Origin: an uncultured Methanosarcinales archaeon
GTDB taxonomy: Archaea; Nanobdellota; Nanobdellia; Woesearchaeales; GW2011-AR9
Assembly (NCBI GenBank): GCA_964604645.1
Contig: CAZRZP010000001.1
Coordinates: 9,394 to 73,393 of the forward strand
DNA: 64,000 bases
Reading direction: 5' to 3'
In this document: piece by piece, positions 42,624 through 52,414 of the stretch
Numbering within the stretch: the first letter of the stretch is position 1
Layout: every line of letters begins with the position of its first letter
Position numbers and translations under genes: made by a program
Notes under the pieces: model-generated
What the model was told of the DNA's origin: nothing
Seen by the model: the letters and a program-made list of their open reading frames with translations, nothing else
Databases searched by the model: none

Positions 42624-43379
42624 CTAACCCAAATTTAGATTAAGTGATTCTCCACTCACTCCAAGCCCAGCTGCTTCTCCTTCTAAATTTAGTGTGGATT
42701 GTGTGGAATTATCTCTTTTATTCACAACAAATTTTCCAGTATAGGAATCAATGAAAATTTCTTCGTTTTGCAATTGATATTCTAGCTTGTTGTCAACGTT
42801 CAACTTTCCACTTCCACTATCTAATGAAAGAGTTGTTAATTCAATTGAATCCATTGCTATAAAATAATAATTCAAATTTTCAAAAGCTATGCTGATATCT
42901 TTTGGTGAAGAAAGAGCCACTTCGTTTATTTCTATTCTCTTTGCTTTCCCATTTAACGATAATCCAACTCCAGAAAAATCAAATTCTCCTACGAAACCTT
43001 CAATGTTAAGTGATACGTCTCCTAAATTATTCATCTCTAATTTATCATCATTTACTGTTATTGTTTTTGAAAGGTCATCAAAACGCAATTCCATGTTGCT
43101 AACTTTTGCAGTTTGTTTAAAGCCGGGAACTTTGTCAAAATTTAATGCTAAATCTATTATGTTACTATTCTTATTAACATTTTTCACCGCTTCCTTATTG
43201 GAATTTACAACTTTATCTGCTTCCGGACTTTTGTTAGTAAGAATTCCTATTGCTGCTGTTGTTAAGTCAATGGATCCTTCATCGTTATTTGAAAGTAGGA
43301 GTATAAAAATTCCTCCAATGACTAGAGTAATAAGGATTATGTAAAATCTGGTGTGATGTCTTCCTGCATGGGCAACCAT
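42624..43379 (-). CDS. N-terminally anchored or secreted hypothetical protein
   Basis: TM 'FYIILITLVIGGIFILLLS' followed by a beta-rich Asn/Ser/Leu-rich domain. Confidence 0.35.
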   Translation of the reverse strand: MVAHAGRHHTRFYIILITLVIGGIFILLLSNNDEGSIDLTTAAIGILTNKSPEADKVVNSNKEAVKNVNKNSNIIDLALNFDKVPGFKQTAKVSNMELRFDDLSKTITVNDDKLEMNNLGDVSLNIEGFVGEFDFSGVGLSLNGKAKRIEINEVALSSPKDISIAFENLNYYFIAMDSIELTTLSLDSGSGKLNVDNKLEYQLQNEEIFIDSYTGKFVVNKRDNSTQSTLNLEGEAAGLGVSGESLNLNLG

Positions 43380-43639
43380 ATGTCTTCCCTCGTTTTTGCA
43401 ATTAGAAGTAGATTATCTTTAATAAGCTTTTTGGTGATGCGGCCAAGTTCGGAAATTTAATTGTTGTTTGTTTTGGGTAAGATTTATTTTTAAATTCATT
43501 ATTTTTTCACTTTATATTTTTACTACATGCTGGCTTTTTTATTTTTTATTTTATTAACCATAAATCTCTGTTAATTGTTCATCTTTAATATTTTAAATTA
43601 GGAATTAATTACTACATAGCCTTATTATTTTTCTATTTT

Positions 43640-43662
43640 ATGGAAACTTATATAAATGTTAA
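43640..43662 (+). promoter_or_regulatory. putative BRE/TATA promoter for the surface-module operon
   Basis: 'ggaaacttatataaatg' is centred about 26 nt upstream of the GTG start at 43678. It is preceded by about 300 nt of AT-rich intergenic DNA. Confidence 0.4.
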
Positions 43663-43677
43663 AAAATTCCTCTACTT

Positions 43678-44151
43678 GTGTATTCAAAGCATAGAATAGA
43701 TCTAGTACAAGCAGTTTCCCAATTAGTAGGCTCTCTTTCTTTTGCTGAGAAGAGACACCTTTTTACTCAAATTTTATCAGAATCTAAACAAGTTGTTCCT
43801 CTAAGTATTTTTTCTGGTAAATTAGCAGGATTAGAAGCATTAGTTGTTTTCCTTAAAGATGAGCAAAAAAGATCAATTGCTGAAATTTCCAAATTGCTTG
43901 GCAGGAATAAGAGTACTTTATATTCAACCTATCATCAGGCAAAAAAGAAACTTATTGGAAAGCTGCCAAAACATGATTATACCATCTCTATTCCAATTGA
44001 CACTTTCTCTAATCGAAAATATTCAATTTTAGAATCATTGGTTGTTTTTCTGAAAGAACATTATCATCTTTCAATAAAAGAGATAGCAGAAAAAACTGGA
44101 AAGAAATACACTACAATTCATACGACATATTCAAGGTATAAAAAGAAATGA
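43678..44151 (+). CDS. small regulator with two tandem sigma-70 region-4/LuxR-like HTH units
   Basis: Repeat 1 is 'LEALVVFLKDEQKRSIAEISKLLGRNKSTLYSTYHQAKKKL'. Repeat 2 is 'LESLVVFLKEHYHLSIKEIAEKTGKKYTTIHTTYSRYKKK'. Its stop overlaps the ATG of the giant gene (ATGA). Confidence 0.5.
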   Translation: MYSKHRIDLVQAVSQLVGSLSFAEKRHLFTQILSESKQVVPLSIFSGKLAGLEALVVFLKDEQKRSIAEISKLLGRNKSTLYSTYHQAKKKLIGKLPKHDYTISIPIDTFSNRKYSILESLVVFLKEHYHLSIKEIAEKTGKKYTTIHTTYSRYKKK

Positions 44152-47100
44152 GCAAACAAAAAGTAAGTGAAAGTACAAAGAGAAAAAGAAGCGTTACTAG
44201 AAGAAAGACTTCAACAAATTGGACTTCAAGGAAGAAAGAAGTTGATAGTAGATTAAAGCTTCTAAGTAATCCAAAAGTTCCAACTTGTCCAACTGAGAAA
44301 TCTATAATCCCGCATGAAAAAATAAAGTCAGAGGGAAATATTTGGTTATTGTCTTCAATTGTAATAATTGTTATTCTTGCTGGTTTTACCTTTTTACTTT
44401 TTGATCCAAGTATTACTGGAGCTTTTAGCACTGCTGGTTTTGGGATTCTATTAACTGATGAAACAGATGATTTAGTTACTTTTTATGATGAGTTTTTAGA
44501 TGGTTTAACTAACAAAACAAGATGGTATAACTCAACTAGTTTAACATCAATGCATTTTATTGAAGATCAAATTATTATTAACACTTCATTAGCTAATAAC
44601 GCAGGAGATGGTTCCATAATAACTACTCAAAATTTGACAATGCATTCGTTTAATATCACTGCTAATGTTAGTTTACAAAATACTTCTTCCACTTTTAGTG
44701 TTGATTCATATACTCGTATCACAGTAGCCACATTTGACCAAATAACTCTTTTTCCAGAGACAACGTGTTCTTTGTTTTTAGAGGAGGCTTCCTCTGGAGC
44801 TTACGCATTATATTTTGGTAATTCAACTACTAGTAATCCTCCTCCTACAATTATTTCCAGTACATTAAGCGATTTTGGCAATAATCTTTCTGGTTTATTG
44901 AATATGGAATTTAAGAATGAAACTAACATGGTTAATTGTACTTTTACTGCTGGTGATAATTCAGTTACGATTGGAGGAGTAAGCAACGATCTTGGGCATG
45001 GTTATGGAGTTGGAATATTTGCAGAGTTAGGATTTCAAGGTGAAGGAGACCCTTCAGGAGATTTAAATGCAACTGTTTATGATTTTAATTATAGTTTAGC
45101 TCCTGCGGAAGTGGTTAATACTCCTCCTACAATCAATTCAATTATTTTAAACACTACTGATGTAAATTTAAATGATACTGAACAGAATGTAACTCTCTAT
45201 ATTGACGGGATTGATTCGGACGGAGATACTTTAAGAAATTTTACCACATGGATATTAAATAATTCTCCTTTAATGGAGTTTTATGTTCCATTTGAACCTT
45301 CAGGGGAATTAAATGCTACAGATTATGCTGATTTTGATAGTAATGGTTCTGCTGTCGGCGGAAGTCCATTTTGGAATTCAACCGGTGGTCATGACGGGGG
45401 CGGTGCTTGGCGATTTCCAGGAGGTTCAGATACAATTCTCCTTGCAGATGGAAATTTTCCTGACATCGGTGCAGGTAATTATACTTTGGATGTCTGGATT
45501 AGATTGAATACAACGGCAAATTATAAGACTATTTTTTCCCATAATAATTTTGATCCAGGTTTTTATGTTCATCAGGGATCCCTTATTGTCTACGATGGTG
45601 GAGATATAACTGGTGATACTGGTCTTGGTTTTACTGATGATTTGTGGCATCACGCAGCATTTGTCCGAAATTCGACAGGTACTAATGGTCTGAATTTTTA
45701 TCTTGATGGAGAGCCAGCTGGAGTTGCAACGCATTCAGCTTCTTTTCCTGCAATGACTGACTTGCGAGTTGGTTGGAGTTCAGCTGGTAATGAAAATTTT
45801 GATGGCCATATTGATGAACTAAAATGGTGGAATATACCCTTAACTTTGCAACAAATTCAAGCAATTTATCGTAATGGAACTAATATTATTGTTTCTTCAG
45901 AAACAACTGCTGGTCAGAACTGGACAGCTGATGTAACTCTTAACGATGGAACAGGGGATAGTGCAACAGCTAGAAGTAATCAATTGATAATTACTGACGG
46001 TGGTGGTGCTCCAGCCGGCAGTGGAACTCTCTCAATTAACAGAACTTTCCCTTACCTCAACTCAACCAGCCGAAAACAAAATGAAACGTTCAACATGACT
46101 TACAACCTTTCATGTGCTGATGATGATTGTTCAGATATTTCTGTTTCATTGGAATTCAACCCTCTAAATAATTCTAATTTTGAATATGGTATTAATGGTT
46201 GGGAAACTGGCGGAGACGGTGAATGGTTTGCTACTGAAACTTTCCCTCAAGACAGTGCAGCAAGTACACAGTCGGGAGCCATTTCAGATAATGAAATCAC
46301 TTGGATAAACCAAAGTGTTTATGTAAATCAAAGTGCTCAATTAGTATTCTATTGGAATGTAAGTTCAGAAAATACTTTTGATTACTTGTTATGGTGTCCT
46401 GACGCTCCAAGTTGTACAAGAACTGCTGGCTATGAATCTAGAATCTCTGGATCAACCGCAATGGCCAAAGTTACTTACGACCTAACTGCAGGAGCACATC
46501 AACTTATTTGGAAGTATGCTAAAGATTCTAGCAATCCGGTTGGAGCGGACGCAGGATGGGTTGATAACATCACTGTTTTTTCTAGAGTACCTAATGGTAC
46601 AAATGCATCACCTTTCAAAACTATGGTTACTAATATTCAGAATAAAACATATTCAAGTTGTTTAGGCTCTTTGTCTGTAGATGGTAGTTGTACTTTTGCT
46701 TTTATCATTAATTCTACTGGTCAAATAAATGAGTCACACGACTTACGTGTTTCAGTAACATCAAGTGATTCTGGTGTTGATGCTATTAATACAACTATTT
46801 TGAATGTTACAATTAACAATTCCGCTCCAGCATCTCCAGATACCACTCCACCTCTTCTTTATGTAGATTTTCCAGAGAATAATACTAAGTATGGTAGAGA
46901 ACGAGTTTGGTTAAATTTTACTGTGTCTGATGAAACTGAATTAGATCAATGTTGGTTCACTATTTTTAATGGTTCTAATTCCACCTTAGGTGGGTGCTCT
47001 AATATCTCATTTACACCAGGTAGAGGACCATTTAATTTAACAATTTACGCTAATGATAGTTCTAACAATCTTAATATTACTGGTCCTATTAATTTTAGCA

Positions 47101-50100
47101 TTAACTCTTTACCTTCAGTAAGTAATTTAGTTCTTAATACGACAGAAGTAACCACTAATGACACCAATCAAAATATAACCCCTTATTGGACAACAAGTGA
47201 TACTGACGGAACTGATACTGTACGTAACATTACTAACTGGTTATTGAATGGAACTTCAATTACTGTTCTTCATTTACCTTTTGAAGGAAATGTAAACTCA
47301 TCTACTTTAGCTGTAGACTATTCAGGATATGGTAATAATGGGTCTGTTCGTGGACCAGTTTACAACTCAACCGGATTCATCAATGCCACTCCAGGTTTTG
47401 GTTCTTTTGTTGCTACTGGTGCTTTAGAGTTTGATGGAATTGATGATTGGGTTAATGTATCTCATGATAATAGCCTTAGTGTTACAGATGAATTTACATT
47501 GATGATGTGGGTTAGAGATCCAGTAACAGGTTACGGTGCAACTAATTACACCACTCGCTGGGTTACCAGTCAATATAATTCAAGTGACTGTCCTTGGACT
47601 GTAACTACGGGTGCAGATGATGCTATGCGCACAGCTACTTTAGGTTTTGAATTTCCTTTCTTTGGTCAGAACATAAGTGGCTCAGCTACAGTTTATATGG
47701 ATACAAATGGTCGATTAAGTTTTGATGACTCTACCTCTGATTTCAATCCAACTACTGGAGAGATGGATGCGGAGAAGAATATTGCAGCAATCTGGCAAGA
47801 TTATGGTGGAGCTGCTCAAAACCATGAACATATTTGCACTAACCAGGGAGATGCTCCTGAAAAGTGGGCAGCTTTTCTATGGAACAGCACTTTTTATAAT
47901 AATGACGGAACCGTGGAAACCGAATTAGTTCTCTTTCAGAATGGCAGCATCTTATCTCGTTCTGGAACAATTGCTGCACACACTGACGATTGGATAAGGG
48001 GTTTAAGTAACGGATCTGATTATCATTATGAATTTAAAAGTGCAATTTTAGCTAATGAGTCTCAAAATGCATTTTTCTGGGATTTAATTTATCCTGTGGA
48101 AGTAGCAGCAGCAGATGAACCGTTACCGGAACGTTCATTAATCAACAAAAATTACAGCTATACTTTGCAAATGCGGAACATGACTGTATGGGGTTTCATA
48201 AATGGCAGTACATTAACAAATGTTTCAGTGGAAATTACTAAAAACTGGACGCATTTAGCCATGACTTTTAATTCAACCGATCTTACTCTTTTTAAAGATG
48301 GCAAATGGAATGATAGCATAAGTATAACTGCTAAAGTAAAACCTAATACTACTGATGTAGTTATCGGCGAATTAATTAATGGTTCGATTGGTGAAGTATT
48401 TATTTTCAATCGTAGTTTATCAGCACAACAGATAAATGCCTATTACAAAAACAAAACAATTATCCATTCAGAAGAAACTACAACTGGTCAGAACTGGACA
48501 GTTGATGTTACACCAAATGATGGTTATGAAGATGGAACCACTGTTAGATCGGATCAATTAATTACTTTAGGTGCTGCTGCCGCAGGAAATACTGTTCCAA
48601 CAATAGATTCGATTGGAATTAATTCAACCGATGTTCTTAGGAATGATACTTCTCAAAATGTTACTGCTAACGTAAGTTCAAGTGATGATGACGACGATGA
48701 TATAAAATTAGTTTACAACTGGCTTCATAATAATTCTCCTTACGCTGTTCTCAACATGCCTTTTGAAAGAGTTAACGGAACGTCAACAGATAATGGTTGG
48801 GATTATTCCGGTAATGCAAATAATGGTTCAGTAACTGGAGCTACTTGGAATTCTTCGGGTGGTTATGATGGTTCAGATAGTTATGTTTTTGATGGAATTA
48901 ATGACCGAATTGTAATTCCAGATAATGTAACCTTACGTCCAGGAACAACAGAATGGACGGTTGCTGCTTGGATTAAACCACCTAACTTGGATCAAAATGG
49001 TCCTTTCATTGCAAAAAGGTTGGCTAGCGGAACGTTTAACCAGATGCAACTTCTTGTTGGCACCATAGGTGGGGGTGGTTCTGTAACTGCGAGTAAAAGA
49101 GTATCTGTAATACTTAGAGAAGGAGCTTCAGGAAATTGGTGGTTTTATACTTCAAGTGATGTAGCAGATGGAGAGTGGCATCATGTTGCTTTTGTAAGAG
49201 AAACGGATGAAAGTGATAACGCTTTGTATATAGATGGTACTGCAGCTTCTTTAACTCAAGCAAAAAACGATGGAGGTACAATTCAAGATATTGACAACAC
49301 TCAACCATGGACAATTGGAAATGATAATGCTGCTGTCTATTACAACGGTTCAATTGATGAAATCTTGATATTTAATCGGTCTTTGTCGGCTCAACAAATA
49401 GCGGCAATTTATAGAAATGAAACTGACATCATTGTTTCACAAGAAACTACTCCTGGAGATAATTGGACTGTTGAAGTAACGCCTAATGATGGTACTGAAG
49501 ACGGTTCTTTCTCTAGATCAAATCAAATAATAATTAACAGACCTCCCACAATTGACACGATTGGTTTGAACTCTACAAATTTAGCAATTAATGGAACAGA
49601 TCAAAATCTTACTGTTAATGTTAGTTATACTGATATAGATGGGGACAAAGTTAAATTAATTTACAATTGGCTTGTCAATGGTTCTCCACAACACTTATTC
49701 AACATGCCATTTGAGAGAGTTAATAGTACTTTAACAAACAACGCTTATGATTATTCTACGTATGCTAATACTGGGACAGTTTCCGGTGCAATTTGGAACA
49801 GCAGCGGAGGTTTTGATGGCAATGGTTCCTATGATTTTGGAAAAGGTGGAGTTGCAATGGTGGATATCACCTTGGGAACTCACTTATATCTCAATAATAG
49901 TTATGATGAATTTACAACCATGGCCTGGGTCAAAACTGATGATAACTCAAAAACATATCAGTGGATTTTTACTCAGCATTCGGGGAATACATTTGGTGAA
50001 AAAAGAGTGGGTCATGGTTTGATGTTTTGGAATAACGATCTTCTTTTTGTAATCTCAAATGATACTGCTAATGTAAATAGTGATACAGCTAGAGTAAATA

Positions 50101-51203
50101 ATGTAATTACTGAAAATAACACTTGGTACCATGTGGCTGGTAGAGTAAACACAACTAATGTTTCAGTTTTCCTTAACGGTGAATTGCAGGCAGTTGTACC
50201 ACGAGCCAGAAGCCCACATAAATCTGGAGATTTAAATATTGGCGGAGGCGGGGTGGCTTCTTCTCAATTTAATGGATCTGTCGATGAAGTCTTACTTTTT
50301 AACAGAAGTCTTTCCCTAGAACAGATTCAGGCAATTTTCAAAAATCAATCCACTGTAATTGTCTCTCAAGAAACAAGAGCTCATGAAAACTGGACTGTTG
50401 AAGTAATTCCCAATGATCGAATAGCTGACGGAGAATCTGCAATCTCAAATCAATTAGTCATAATAAACAGCCCTCCGACAACTCCTCATCTTAACCTTAC
50501 TCCTGTTAATGGAACTTCTATTACCAACAGGACACCAACAATGAGCTGGTCAAATTCAACAGATGATGATGGAAACCAAATAACTTATCATATACAAATT
50601 GACGACAATTCAGCTTTTAATAACCCGGAGGTGAATGTTTCATCAATCTCAACTGATCCTGGAAAACCAAATGTAACTTATTACGTCGATACGGAATTAG
50701 ATGTTGATGTAGTCTATTATTGGAGAGTAAGGGCAGAAGACAATACTGAATTTGGGGAGTTTACCGGAGAAAATAATTTCACGGTTGATTCATTAATCTC
50801 ATTTTCCTTGCCAACCAGCACCATAGAATGGGGTTCTCAAGCTCCAAATCAGGAAATAACCACTGCTGACGGAACTCCAGCGCCAATGAGGGGAGAAAAT
50901 ACTGGAAACATCCTTTTGAACGTTTCAATAAACGCTACACAATTATTCAACGGGACTGCTCTAAATAATAGTGCATATCAATTCATGATTCGTGAAAATT
51001 TAACTAGTTCCTATAATTTAACTCTATCAGCTGGTAATTGGACGAATATGTCTAAAAGATTACACAGCGTCGTACATGTAGTTAGATTAAATTGGCAGAA
51101 TGTAAACGACGATTTCCTGTTCGACTTAAATTTAACCATTCCGTCAGATGAGAGGGCAGGAACAAAAACATCAATAATAGATTTTACGGTGGAACAAGGA
51201 TGA
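44148..51203 (+). CDS. giant (2351 aa) type-II-anchored surface glycoprotein with repeated Ig-like plus LamG_3 (concanavalin-A-like lectin) modules and a C-terminal FN3-like domain
   Basis: Basic cytoplasmic N-terminus, then a single TM 'LLSSIVIIVILAGFTFLLF'. At least four LamG_3 units, each with the lead-in 'L.MPFE...DYSG.GNNGSV.G' and the ending 'FNGSIDE(V/I)LIFNRSLS..QI.AIY+N.T'. Interspersed 'PPTI(N/D)SIG.NSTD' Ig-like segments. FN3-like 'TPTMSWSNSTDDDGNQITYHIQ...YYWRVRAEDN'. Very many N-x-S/T sequons. Confidence 0.75.
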   Translation: MSKQKVSESTKRKRSVTRRKTSTNWTSRKKEVDSRLKLLSNPKVPTCPTEKSIIPHEKIKSEGNIWLLSSIVIIVILAGFTFLLFDPSITGAFSTAGFGILLTDETDDLVTFYDEFLDGLTNKTRWYNSTSLTSMHFIEDQIIINTSLANNAGDGSIITTQNLTMHSFNITANVSLQNTSSTFSVDSYTRITVATFDQITLFPETTCSLFLEEASSGAYALYFGNSTTSNPPPTIISSTLSDFGNNLSGLLNMEFKNETNMVNCTFTAGDNSVTIGGVSNDLGHGYGVGIFAELGFQGEGDPSGDLNATVYDFNYSLAPAEVVNTPPTINSIILNTTDVNLNDTEQNVTLYIDGIDSDGDTLRNFTTWILNNSPLMEFYVPFEPSGELNATDYADFDSNGSAVGGSPFWNSTGGHDGGGAWRFPGGSDTILLADGNFPDIGAGNYTLDVWIRLNTTANYKTIFSHNNFDPGFYVHQGSLIVYDGGDITGDTGLGFTDDLWHHAAFVRNSTGTNGLNFYLDGEPAGVATHSASFPAMTDLRVGWSSAGNENFDGHIDELKWWNIPLTLQQIQAIYRNGTNIIVSSETTAGQNWTADVTLNDGTGDSATARSNQLIITDGGGAPAGSGTLSINRTFPYLNSTSRKQNETFNMTYNLSCADDDCSDISVSLEFNPLNNSNFEYGINGWETGGDGEWFATETFPQDSAASTQSGAISDNEITWINQSVYVNQSAQLVFYWNVSSENTFDYLLWCPDAPSCTRTAGYESRISGSTAMAKVTYDLTAGAHQLIWKYAKDSSNPVGADAGWVDNITVFSRVPNGTNASPFKTMVTNIQNKTYSSCLGSLSVDGSCTFAFIINSTGQINESHDLRVSVTSSDSGVDAINTTILNVTINNSAPASPDTTPPLLYVDFPENNTKYGRERVWLNFTVSDETELDQCWFTIFNGSNSTLGGCSNISFTPGRGPFNLTIYANDSSNNLNITGPINFSINSLPSVSNLVLNTTEVTTNDTNQNITPYWTTSDTDGTDTVRNITNWLLNGTSITVLHLPFEGNVNSSTLAVDYSGYGNNGSVRGPVYNSTGFINATPGFGSFVATGALEFDGIDDWVNVSHDNSLSVTDEFTLMMWVRDPVTGYGATNYTTRWVTSQYNSSDCPWTVTTGADDAMRTATLGFEFPFFGQNISGSATVYMDTNGRLSFDDSTSDFNPTTGEMDAEKNIAAIWQDYGGAAQNHEHICTNQGDAPEKWAAFLWNSTFYNNDGTVETELVLFQNGSILSRSGTIAAHTDDWIRGLSNGSDYHYEFKSAILANESQNAFFWDLIYPVEVAAADEPLPERSLINKNYSYTLQMRNMTVWGFINGSTLTNVSVEITKNWTHLAMTFNSTDLTLFKDGKWNDSISITAKVKPNTTDVVIGELINGSIGEVFIFNRSLSAQQINAYYKNKTIIHSEETTTGQNWTVDVTPNDGYEDGTTVRSDQLITLGAAAAGNTVPTIDSIGINSTDVLRNDTSQNVTANVSSSDDDDDDIKLVYNWLHNNSPYAVLNMPFERVNGTSTDNGWDYSGNANNGSVTGATWNSSGGYDGSDSYVFDGINDRIVIPDNVTLRPGTTEWTVAAWIKPPNLDQNGPFIAKRLASGTFNQMQLLVGTIGGGGSVTASKRVSVILREGASGNWWFYTSSDVADGEWHHVAFVRETDESDNALYIDGTAASLTQAKNDGGTIQDIDNTQPWTIGNDNAAVYYNGSIDEILIFNRSLSAQQIAAIYRNETDIIVSQETTPGDNWTVEVTPNDGTEDGSFSRSNQIIINRPPTIDTIGLNSTNLAINGTDQNLTVNVSYTDIDGDKVKLIYNWLVNGSPQHLFNMPFERVNSTLTNNAYDYSTYANTGTVSGAIWNSSGGFDGNGSYDFGKGGVAMVDITLGTHLYLNNSYDEFTTMAWVKTDDNSKTYQWIFTQHSGNTFGEKRVGHGLMFWNNDLLFVISNDTANVNSDTARVNNVITENNTWYHVAGRVNTTNVSVFLNGELQAVVPRARSPHKSGDLNIGGGGVASSQFNGSVDEVLLFNRSLSLEQIQAIFKNQSTVIVSQETRAHENWTVEVIPNDRIADGESAISNQLVIINSPPTTPHLNLTPVNGTSITNRTPTMSWSNSTDDDGNQITYHIQIDDNSAFNNPEVNVSSISTDPGKPNVTYYVDTELDVDVVYYWRVRAEDNTEFGEFTGENNFTVDSLISFSLPTSTIEWGSQAPNQEITTADGTPAPMRGENTGNILLNVSINATQLFNGTALNNSAYQFMIRENLTSSYNLTLSAGNWTNMSKRLHSVVHVVRLNWQNVNDDFLFDLNLTIPSDERAGTKTSIIDFTVEQG

Positions 51204-52414
51204 AACGAAAAATAATATTTATTTGTATTTTATTAATACTAATAAGTTCAGTTTACGCAACTGGAATTAGGCCTGCTAAAACTGAATTAGCGTTTGATGA
51301 AACTAAATATATAAACAAAACAATTTGGGCTATTAATAATGACTATAATGGTTTGGATCTGAGTATATCTGTACAAGGAGAAATTGCTGAATATGTAAAC
51401 CTACATACTACCAAGCTTACAATCCGTGATGATGAAGATGCTAAACCAATTAACTTTGAAATTAGTTTACCTCCTTCCATACCGCCTGGGATTTCAACTG
51501 CTTATATTGTTGTTGAAGAAAAATCAATTCATGGTGAAGGGAGTAGCGTGTCAAGTAGAATTTTATTGAAACATAAAATTATTGTTGAAGGCCCTTATCC
51601 TGAGAAATATGTGAAAGCGAAAGTTAATTTTCGGGATACTGGAGATACTATTATGTTTGTGTCTGAAGTTGAGAATTTCGGAACTAAAGATTTGGAGAAC
51701 GTTTACACCAACTTTTATGTAAACGATAAATTATCAAAACAACAGAAACCTTCAACTGAAGGTACATCATTGAAAACTAATGAAAATAAACTTTTAACTA
51801 CTTCCCTTCCCAAGACTTTATTTGATTTGGGTGAATATGAAGTTTCTGCAGTAACTCATTTTGATGGCCAGCAAGTTGAATTACTTAAGAAATTAAGAGT
51901 TGGAAAACCAGATGTTGACGTAACATATTTTGACAAATACTTTCAAGCTTATGAGTTAAACCGGTATGCTATGGATCTATTAAATAAATGGAATCGGGAA
52001 ATAAAAAATGTGTTTGTTGATGTTGAAGTTCAAAAAGACGAGAAAAAAGTTGATTCATTCCGAACTAAATCTGTTGATCTTCCAGCTGAAGTGTTAAAGA
52101 GGATTGAAGATTATTTAGATGGCAGAGAAAAATCTCCTGGAGTTTATACATTCAAATTAATTGTAAACTTTTGGAACGATATTAGGATGGAACAGAAAGA
52201 ATTCTTATTTGATTCTGAATTTCTTGAACCGGGCATTGAACTTCCAGAAAGAAACGCCCTTTCTGGAGCAGCTACACAAACAGAATTAAATGGAACATCA
52301 TTTTCATGGCTTCCATGGATAATCATTACTCTTTTATTACTTTTAATTACTTCGTATGTTGTCTACAGGTACATTAATCGAGAAGAATATGAAAGAGGGG
52401 GCGACGTTTTTTAA
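51200..52414 (+). CDS. secreted beta-rich protein with signal peptide and C-terminal TM anchor (paralog of 54673-55809)
   Basis: 'MKRKIIFICILLILISSVYA' signal. C-terminal 'WLPWIIITLLLLLITSYVVYRY' plus a short tail. ATGA overlap with the giant gene stop. Confidence 0.5.
   Translation: MKRKIIFICILLILISSVYATGIRPAKTELAFDETKYINKTIWAINNDYNGLDLSISVQGEIAEYVNLHTTKLTIRDDEDAKPINFEISLPPSIPPGISTAYIVVEEKSIHGEGSSVSSRILLKHKIIVEGPYPEKYVKAKVNFRDTGDTIMFVSEVENFGTKDLENVYTNFYVNDKLSKQQKPSTEGTSLKTNENKLLTTSLPKTLFDLGEYEVSAVTHFDGQQVELLKKLRVGKPDVDVTYFDKYFQAYELNRYAMDLLNKWNREIKNVFVDVEVQKDEKKVDSFRTKSVDLPAEVLKRIEDYLDGREKSPGVYTFKLIVNFWNDIRMEQKEFLFDSEFLEPGIELPERNALSGAATQTELNGTSFSWLPWIIITLLLLLITSYVVYRYINREEYERGGDVF

Follow-up and report, generated by a model that had tools for sequence, protein, structure and literature searches.

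The gene considered here lies at positions 43,678 to 44,151 of the window, by which we mean the whole 64,000-nt stretch of the archaeal contig CAZRZP010000001.1 that was analysed. It encodes a 157-aa protein with two helix-turn-helix (HTH) units in tandem and stands directly ahead of the gene for a 2351-aa surface protein. By its full-length match to the family profile (alignment A1, hmmsearch, 208 bits, profile positions 4-162), this protein is a member of a large family of tandem-HTH proteins, and we judge it fairly probable that it is a cytoplasmic, sequence-specific DNA-binding factor that acts on repeated sites of its own promoter and sets the transcription of its own surface-protein operon. 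The protein would be a cytoplasmic binder made of a helical hairpin and two sigma-70-region-4-like HTH units; it would bind repeated sites in the promoter region of the operon, the two HTH units of a single chain forming a built-in dimer that reads a bipartite site about 15 bp long, and this binding would set the transcription of the HTH gene itself, of the 2351-aa LamG surface protein and probably of the next membrane protein.

The first-pass annotation of this stretch, made from the letters alone, had read the protein as a regulator composed of two sigma-70 region-4/LuxR-like HTH units, a module said to be uncommon in archaea. Profile, fold and comparative evidence agree on two sigma-70 region-4-like HTH units in one 157-aa protein. 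The two repeats are 43% identical (23/53 aa, BLASTP E=5e-13), and the whole protein matches Pfam Sigma70_r4_2 (PF08281) with 48.9 bits over two stretches and HTH_23 with 33.6 bits, the cut-offs being the Pfam gathering scores of 25.7 and 24.6, respectively. The LuxR half of the description did not hold as well: in the Pfam scan of the 157-aa protein, no match to GerE/LuxR (PF00196) was reported, nor did the scan yield a match to Sigma70_r2, or any match for the N-terminal 38 aa. All the NCBIfam sigma models stay far below their cut-offs on this protein (the best, TIGR02937, at 26.6 vs 42.9 bits), a PDB sequence search with the single protein returned chance matches only, and no hydrophobic segment is found in it. 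The AlphaFold2 model, built with 16 homologues, has a mean predicted local distance difference test score (pLDDT) of 89.6 and a predicted template-modelling score (pTM) of 0.74; in it, a helical hairpin (residues 4-35) precedes two copies of the same succession of a short strand, a short helix and three helices. In unit 1, DSSP assigns a strand to residues 39-41 and helices to 42-45, 51-62, 67-74, and 78-91, and in unit 2, a strand to 104-106 and helices to 107-110, 117-128, 133-140, and 144-156. Residues P41, F45, L52, L74, R76, and T80 of unit 1 and L118, E119, L125, I136, and R153 of unit 2 are invariant among homologues. The open reading frame (ORF) itself is genuine and not a mis-called 5' extension of the giant gene, an eventuality that the first-pass annotation had raised: the GTG at 43678 is the first start codon past an in-frame stop at 43660-43662, and homologues share their N-terminus with the window protein in the alignment (for example, MHKKRREKL or MESKREIE).

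A word-indexed homology search returned only 17 relatives, which badly underestimated the family, and an exhaustive profile search built on the alignment of those 17 relatives found 2242 cluster representatives at E<=1e-3, 1138 of which at E<=1e-30; among them is P0001, a near-identical copy of the window protein. Many representatives of 300-370 aa contain the whole module twice. At the other extreme, 18 of the top 150 representatives are at least 650 aa long, and all of these carry the module at or near the C-terminus except P0159 (1644 aa, 23 stretches), which we discarded as a spurious low-complexity match. A scan of one genome per GTDB species with alignment A2 gave 31 loci, including one in the complete genome AR20 (CP010426), and all of them fall in Woesearchaeota, Pacearchaeota, Nanoarchaeota or unclassified archaeal metagenome-assembled genomes. 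With 2242 cluster representatives and 31/31 genome loci from DPANN archaea, the idea of a module uncommon in archaea is wrong for the DPANN lineage. It is also known that bacterial-type HTH regulators are the norm among archaea (PMC2872624), where LuxR-type regulators occur as well (PMC5413776). Three of the loci (L012, L013, and L024) are in metagenome-assembled genomes with the label “uncultured Methanosarcinales archaeon”; since both the AT-rich context and the genes present look like those of the Woesearchaeota loci, these labels may be wrong.

What the members have in common besides the module is the gene that follows. At all 26 loci with downstream sequence, the ORF next to the 3' side of the free-standing HTH gene lies on the same strand and encodes a protein with a hydrophobic anchor within the first 151 residues, and further cases were seen beyond these 26. 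The gap between the two genes ranges from -22 to +1 nt at 25 of the 26 loci, with -4, -8, -11, and -14 as the commonest values; the remaining value, -137 at L017, is an artefact of choosing the earliest start codon in an open frame. The downstream partners do not form one family, as some have Laminin_G_3 domains, others SO2946-like_C, and others no annotation at all, with sizes from 243 to more than 2000 aa; the upstream neighbours show no conservation among the family loci. The window obeys the same rule: the partner has its anchor at residues 65-85, and the TGA stop of the HTH gene (44149-44151) overlaps the ATG of the giant gene (44148-44150), as the first-pass annotation had described. Because such overlaps are conserved, the surface protein would be coupled in translation to the regulator by the 4-nt ATGA overlap. 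When the start is placed in accordance with the protein alignment, TTG or GTG is the first codon of 15 of 21 free-standing genes, and three more lack a canonical start ahead of the module; a weak translation of the regulator, followed by a structural gene that begins with ATG, would be in keeping with the TTG and GTG starts.

In 10 of the 31 genome loci (L020, L021, L022, L023, L026, L027, L028, L031, L033, and L037), as well as in the representatives P0104 and P0148, the module is not encoded by a separate gene and forms the C-terminus of the giant protein, in a continuous frame of 1380-2209 codons read with the standard code. These fused giants begin either with a cytoplasmic coiled-coil domain of about 95 aa containing EEWINYYD or with a signal peptide, next to which comes a membrane anchor; the ectodomain that follows is long and has abundant N-x-S/T sequons, and after it come a conserved ...GQEQLYFC...Q.YS....G.W.I.I motif, 8-17 hydrophobic residues, an RRKKK cluster (4-7 Lys/Arg), and the helical hairpin with its two HTH units, so that the proteins end in one or two complete tandem-HTH modules. 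This tripartite tail resembles a C-terminal sorting signal that would run on into a DNA-binding domain. By the positive-inside rule, the fused module would be cytoplasmic and tethered to the membrane, although the short hydrophobic stretch makes this topology uncertain. Both forms can coexist in one operon, as in AR20 and three metagenome loci, where a free HTH gene precedes a giant gene ending in a second module.

Two further features were seen around these genes. The N-terminal coiled-coil domain, with (E/Q)EWINYYD ahead of the first anchor, occurs at L006, L017, L020, L023, L024, L028, L030, L031, and L033; it has no Pfam match, and the window giant carries a basic low-complexity tail instead. 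At L022, L023, L027, L031, L033, L037, and L040, a secreted protein of about 300 aa is encoded 30-240 nt 3' of the fused module, and these proteins look alike N-terminally across loci, with a signal peptide followed by an Ig-like ...DGD.N... segment. A homology between the C-terminal domain of the window giant and the domain that precedes the anchor in the fused relatives was considered and dropped, the BLASTP E-values (0.014-0.085) not being significant.

The candidate DNA target comes from the relatives, most of which carry, upstream of the operon, same-strand direct-repeat arrays of a 15-bp motif with the consensus aCTTACAWAWWAAGWA (54 sites), also given as CTTACAWAWWAAGWA. An array has 3-11 same-strand copies at regular spacing, the start-to-start distances peaking at 21-22 bp (9 cases) and 40-46 bp (12 cases), i.e., about two and four helical turns. 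Examples are four copies of CATACAAATTAATA at L001, also present in L009, a number that 0/100 shuffles reach; six copies of CTTACAAATTAAGTA at L005 and four of TTTACATAATAATAAA at L002, which both beat all shuffles; and 7-10 copies of CTTACATATTAAGTA upstream of the free-standing gene of AR20. Further arrays were found at L004, L010, L011, L016, L018, L019, L023, L025, L032, L034, and L036. The motif is bipartite, with CTTACA and AAG(T/A)A as its conserved parts, and at several loci it takes the form of an imperfect inverted repeat with halves about one helical turn apart, such as GTTTAC-N6-GTAAAC (L002) or CTTA-N5-TAAG (L005, L023). Within 300 nt upstream, CTTACAWA is found 2.85 times per kb on the gene strand vs 0.33 on the opposite strand; over the other 403 kb of the sequence retrieved, its frequency is 0.05 per kb and strand, which corresponds to an upstream enrichment of about 55-fold; of the 13 matches in other non-coding DNA, 10 are more distal members of the same arrays.

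When the module is fused at the 3' end, the same class of motif lies directly upstream of the giant gene (L020, L028, L033, L027, and L031); the motif, thus, follows the module rather than a particular gene order. The reverse test used no protein information: metagenomes were scanned for two copies of the motif 38-48 bp apart, and the module turned up 53-225 nt downstream, on the same strand, in 12-13 of the 22 loci whose downstream sequence was long enough. Of the 27 metagenome loci seeded by the motif, ten were set aside as unrelated tandem repeats from other organisms. All this is strong evidence that the arrays and the module form a cis-trans pair, in the sense of a linkage between the two rather than of binding as such.

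The window itself offers weaker evidence than its close relatives. Its AT-rich intergenic region has two exact copies of TTACTACAT, at 43520 and 43609, which are also the only two in the 64 kb. The proximal copy scores 0.7 bits with a position weight matrix (PWM) built from 52 non-redundant sites, whose training minimum is 7.0 bits, and it is, thus, not canonical. The closest relatives have clearer repeats, namely GTCTACATAATARTAA twice at L043, TTACATRATGGGA four times at L047, GGTACATAAT and GCTACAAAATA at L004, and CACATAATAGTAA at L046, and in all four, the repeat nearest the gene stands directly against the upstream edge of a TATA-like box 26-32 nt upstream of the start codon; in the window, the proximal repeat lies 28 nt upstream of the TATA-like box instead of adjoining it. 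For this reason, the two copies are listed only as candidate sites. In the rest of the 64 kb, neither the PWM nor the pattern scans revealed regulon-like sites. Since the centre of the TATA-like box is about 26 nt from the GTG, the mRNA is suggested to be leaderless or nearly so.

Calling the protein a “regulator”, as the first-pass annotation did, is an interpretation that the arrays of the relatives support and that the window supports less well. Several points speak against it, or at least against its details. No canonical motif is found in 43380-43700, where the best PWM score is 6.2 bits for a TATA-like sequence at 43646 (ACTTATATAAATG), and the same-strand array of aCTTACAWAWWAAGWA copies that characterizes the family is not seen upstream of the window gene. 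The pair of TTACTACAT copies is not significant alone, as at least two copies of a 9-mer occur in 22/100 shuffles. That motif and module go together speaks for linkage and not for binding, and the arrays could be read by another factor. Where the motif stands with respect to the TATA-like box varies by clade, directly upstream of it at L004, L043, L046, and L047 and downstream at L001 and L009, so that the protein may be an activator as well as a repressor. Such a tight overlap with a structural gene is also unusual for a low-copy regulator. Finally, our literature search found no paper on the tandem-HTH family and no DNA-binding experiment for any of its members.

The features of the locus are listed in Table 1. 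The divergent gene is kept only in loci of the same or sister genomes (L041 and L042) and not in the other family loci; over the intergenic region that it shares with the HTH gene, L041 has the same sequence as the window, and L042 deviates from it by 1 nt. An Rfam scan found no structured RNA in this 298-nt region nor anywhere in the window, in which no CRISPR feature was found either. Just upstream, the window encodes aIF2-alpha and Nop10, and the named aIF2-alpha relatives closest to that of the window are from Candidatus Woesearchaeota and Nanoarchaeota. The 247,934-bp JGI contig Ga0104999_1000012 is identical to the window at this locus. Downstream, the 404-aa membrane protein is probably encoded by the third gene of the operon and may anchor the giant protein, itself devoid of a C-terminal anchor, in the membrane or act as its partner. 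The PSITGAF motif of the giant has counterparts in most partner proteins, where an x-[I/L/F]-T-G-[F/Y/A/M] motif is found just past the N-terminal anchor (PSITGF, PTITGY, PEITGF, SLITGF); it was seen in the window giant and at L005, L006, L010, L013, L014, L025, L032, and L038, among others, and may be a lineage-specific signal-peptide processing or sorting signal of DPANN secreted proteins.

Table 1. Features of the tandem-HTH locus, in window coordinates.
Feature	Position	Strand	Remarks
Divergent gene, 251-aa membrane-anchored protein	42624-43379	-	No Pfam match; shares the 298-nt intergenic region
AT-rich intergenic region	43380-43677	.	GC about 0.25-0.27; presumed promoter/operator
Distal candidate site TTACTACATGCT	43520-43531	+	One of two exact TTACTACAT copies
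Proximal candidate site TTACTACATAGC	43609-43620	+	TTACTACAT copy; CTACATA in common with the repeated motif of close relative L043
TATA-like box TTATATAAA	43648-43656	+	Upstream of the GTG start
Tandem-HTH gene	43678-44151	+	GTG start, TGA stop, 157 aa; kept in >2000 cluster representatives
N-terminal helical hairpin, residues 4-35	43687-43782	+	AlphaFold2 helices 4-18 and 22-35; profile covers the hairpin in free-standing and fused relatives
HTH unit 1, residues 38-92	43789-43953	+	PLSIF strand/turn and three helices; Sigma70_r4_2 30.3 bits when scanned singly
HTH unit 2, residues 103-157	43984-44148	+	IPIDTF strand/turn and three helices, RYKKK end; Sigma70_r4_2 24.5 bits when scanned singly, just under the 25.7 cut-off
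ATGA stop/start overlap, HTH gene/giant gene	44148-44151	+	Overlaps/abutments of -22 to +1 nt kept in relatives
2351-aa surface protein	44148-51203	+	Basic N-terminal tail, one membrane anchor, PSITGAF motif, four Laminin_G_3 stretches
Giant protein N-terminal tail, 64 aa	44148-44339	+	Basic, low-complexity; precedes the anchor
Giant protein membrane anchor, residues 65-85	44340-44402	+	Single hydrophobic segment
PSITGAF motif, giant protein residues 87-93	44406-44426	+	Just past the anchor
404-aa membrane protein	51200-52414	+	ATG overlaps the giant stop (second ATGA); N-terminal signal, weak CARDB match, C-terminal hydrophobic segment, basic tail

Several known systems bear comparison with the window protein and its relatives. 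Each unit of the window protein has the three-helix HTH fold of region 4 of sigma-70 and extracytoplasmic function (ECF) sigma factors, along with a match to its profile (PF08281), and the gene arrangement adds to the likeness, as ECF sigma genes typically share an overlap with the gene behind them, that of the anti-sigma factor, a single-pass membrane protein. The window protein differs from ECF sigma factors in having no region 2, no sigma-family model above cut-off and two region-4-like units in tandem. Archaea use TBP and TFB, not sigma factors; in the absence of region 2 and in an archaeal host, the protein is not a sigma factor. Compared with LuxR/NarL/GerE regulators, it has no reported GerE match, no receiver or ligand domain, and its units are paired in one chain.

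The resemblance to ECF operons brings in the rival reading in which the partner surface protein, through its cytoplasmic part, holds the HTH protein at the membrane or controls it there, so that surface events, for instance contact with a host or the successful export and anchoring of the partner, would feed back on transcription. We consider it unlikely, even if it would be the non-covalent version of what is seen in the fused relatives and analogous to ECF sigma/anti-sigma pairs, ToxR, CadC, and ArnR. The gene overlap does resemble that of sigma/anti-sigma pairs; in 10/31 genome loci, the module sits at the C-terminus of the giant after a hydrophobic stretch and RRKKK, and three more motif-seeded loci have a free HTH gene followed by a giant with a fused module. 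Many partners have the conserved N-terminal cytoplasmic domain of about 95 aa with EEWINYYD, and the window giant has a 64-aa cytoplasmic tail ahead of its anchor. That transmembrane regulators are known in archaea (PMC10269533, PMC6396743) also counts in its favour. However, many other partners have a short signal peptide only and no cytoplasmic domain (L001, L004, L009, L012, L015, and L019), the tail of the window giant is of low complexity and not conserved with other partners, and the hydrophobic stretch of the fused forms is short (8-17 aa), with an uncertain topology. The anti-sigma analogy was tried as the main model and given up on account of these non-conserved tails and signal-peptide-only partners; we kept it as a rival. 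The fused relatives join a DNA-binding domain to one or more membrane anchors as do ToxR, CadC, and archaeal ArnR/ArnR1 (PMC10269533, PMC6396743), whereas the window protein has no membrane segment, and in the fused relatives, an ectodomain exceeding 1000 aa is followed by the HTH at the C-terminus, vs a classical N-terminal HTH with a small sensor domain. The invariant pairing and overlap with genes of secreted proteins, together with the fusion of the module to the end of the partner in some relatives, could also mean that the module does not bind DNA at all and is a protein-binding adaptor or chaperone for the export or assembly of its partner. Sigma region 4 also acts as a protein-contact surface. 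This reading, which we hold for quite improbable, leaves unexplained the conserved strand-specific motif arrays that track the module, and both units keep typical recognition-helix features in a protein that is very basic.

Two other explanations accept that DNA is the target and differ as to the purpose. In the architectural one, the protein would coat the direct-repeat array in a nucleoprotein structure, with no classical on/off regulation, and this structure would insulate or boost the transcription of a very long gene, the genome being AT-rich and replete with cryptic TATA-like sequences. The model here is that of Cbp1 and Cbp2, whose linked HTH units bind regularly spaced CRISPR repeats and aid the transcription of long arrays (PMC3597662, PMC10883916). 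The arrays of 3-11 regularly spaced same-strand copies, the chain of linked HTH units, and the genome GC of about 30% are all in line with it, and among PDB sequences, the family profile matches Cbp2 (2lvs_A) best; the likeness to Cbp1/Cbp2 (PDB 2LVS) is that of small archaeal proteins with two or three linked HTH units and regularly spaced direct repeats. This similarity is, however, weak (E=0.018, 18 bits), Cbp1 and Cbp2 come from Crenarchaeota and not from DPANN archaea, and their targets are CRISPR repeats, with no link to surface genes, vs promoter-proximal arrays of 15-bp motifs at 21-46 bp spacing in the relatives of the window protein. The two domains of Cbp2 do not interact, vs a compact predicted window protein, which is at most a distant analogue of Cbp2. 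Since, in addition, the arrays lie upstream of the operon and not along it and the window has no clear array, an architectural role appears improbable. A mobile-element or viral remnant, i.e., an HTH pair from a transposase or a terminase small subunit involved in DNA rearrangement of the surface-protein locus, has in our view only a very slim chance of being correct. It is suggested by weak to moderate matches to HTH_23, HTH_38, Terminase_5 (20.8 vs 20.3 bits), and the IS630 and ISL3 HTH models, and by PHROG matches to sigma factors and regulators; but no catalytic domain or inverted terminal repeats were found nearby, the neighbours are housekeeping genes (aIF2-alpha, Nop10), L041 and L042 are collinear, and the family is vertically distributed in DPANN genomes in a stable context. 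A viral, defence or mobile-element origin was, thus, rejected, the PHROG and PADLOC matches being generic HTH ones only.

Returning to the sequence-specific binder that we favour, one may go a step further and ask whether the tandem-HTH module is the cytoplasmic output of a DPANN-wide circuit from surface to genome, built around giant surface proteins. This extension is speculative, and we would rather bet against it. In the fused forms, an adhesin-like ectodomain would be wired via a short anchor to a DNA-binding domain reading an iteron-like array at its own promoter; the domain would work either while tethered to the membrane or after cleavage of the C-terminal anchor during surface display, in which case the release of the HTH would report successful export or host contact. 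Split forms such as that of the window would follow the same logic by means of a separate, translationally coupled protein. If true, this would be a new class of one-component signalling linking the giant surface proteins of episymbiotic archaea to gene control.

An HTH regulator heading an operon is an ordinary kind of element. Four aspects appear to be undescribed: a family of >2000 cluster representatives with the tandem region-4 architecture; the exclusive association of this family, in DPANN archaea, with genes for secreted and surface proteins; the fused forms, presumably tethered to the membrane, in which the module follows a giant ectodomain; and the conserved promoter-proximal motif array. 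DPANN archaea have tiny genomes with few recognisable regulators, and they need giant surface proteins for host attachment. The tandem-HTH family supplies numerous candidate regulators dedicated to secreted- and surface-protein operons, together with a candidate DNA target that is conserved and open to direct in vitro tests, with no need to grow the organisms, as well as an annotation rule for thousands of metagenome “hypothetical proteins”. The fused relatives hint at direct signalling from the cell surface to DNA, and the family as a whole probably controls how DPANN cells build their outer surface.

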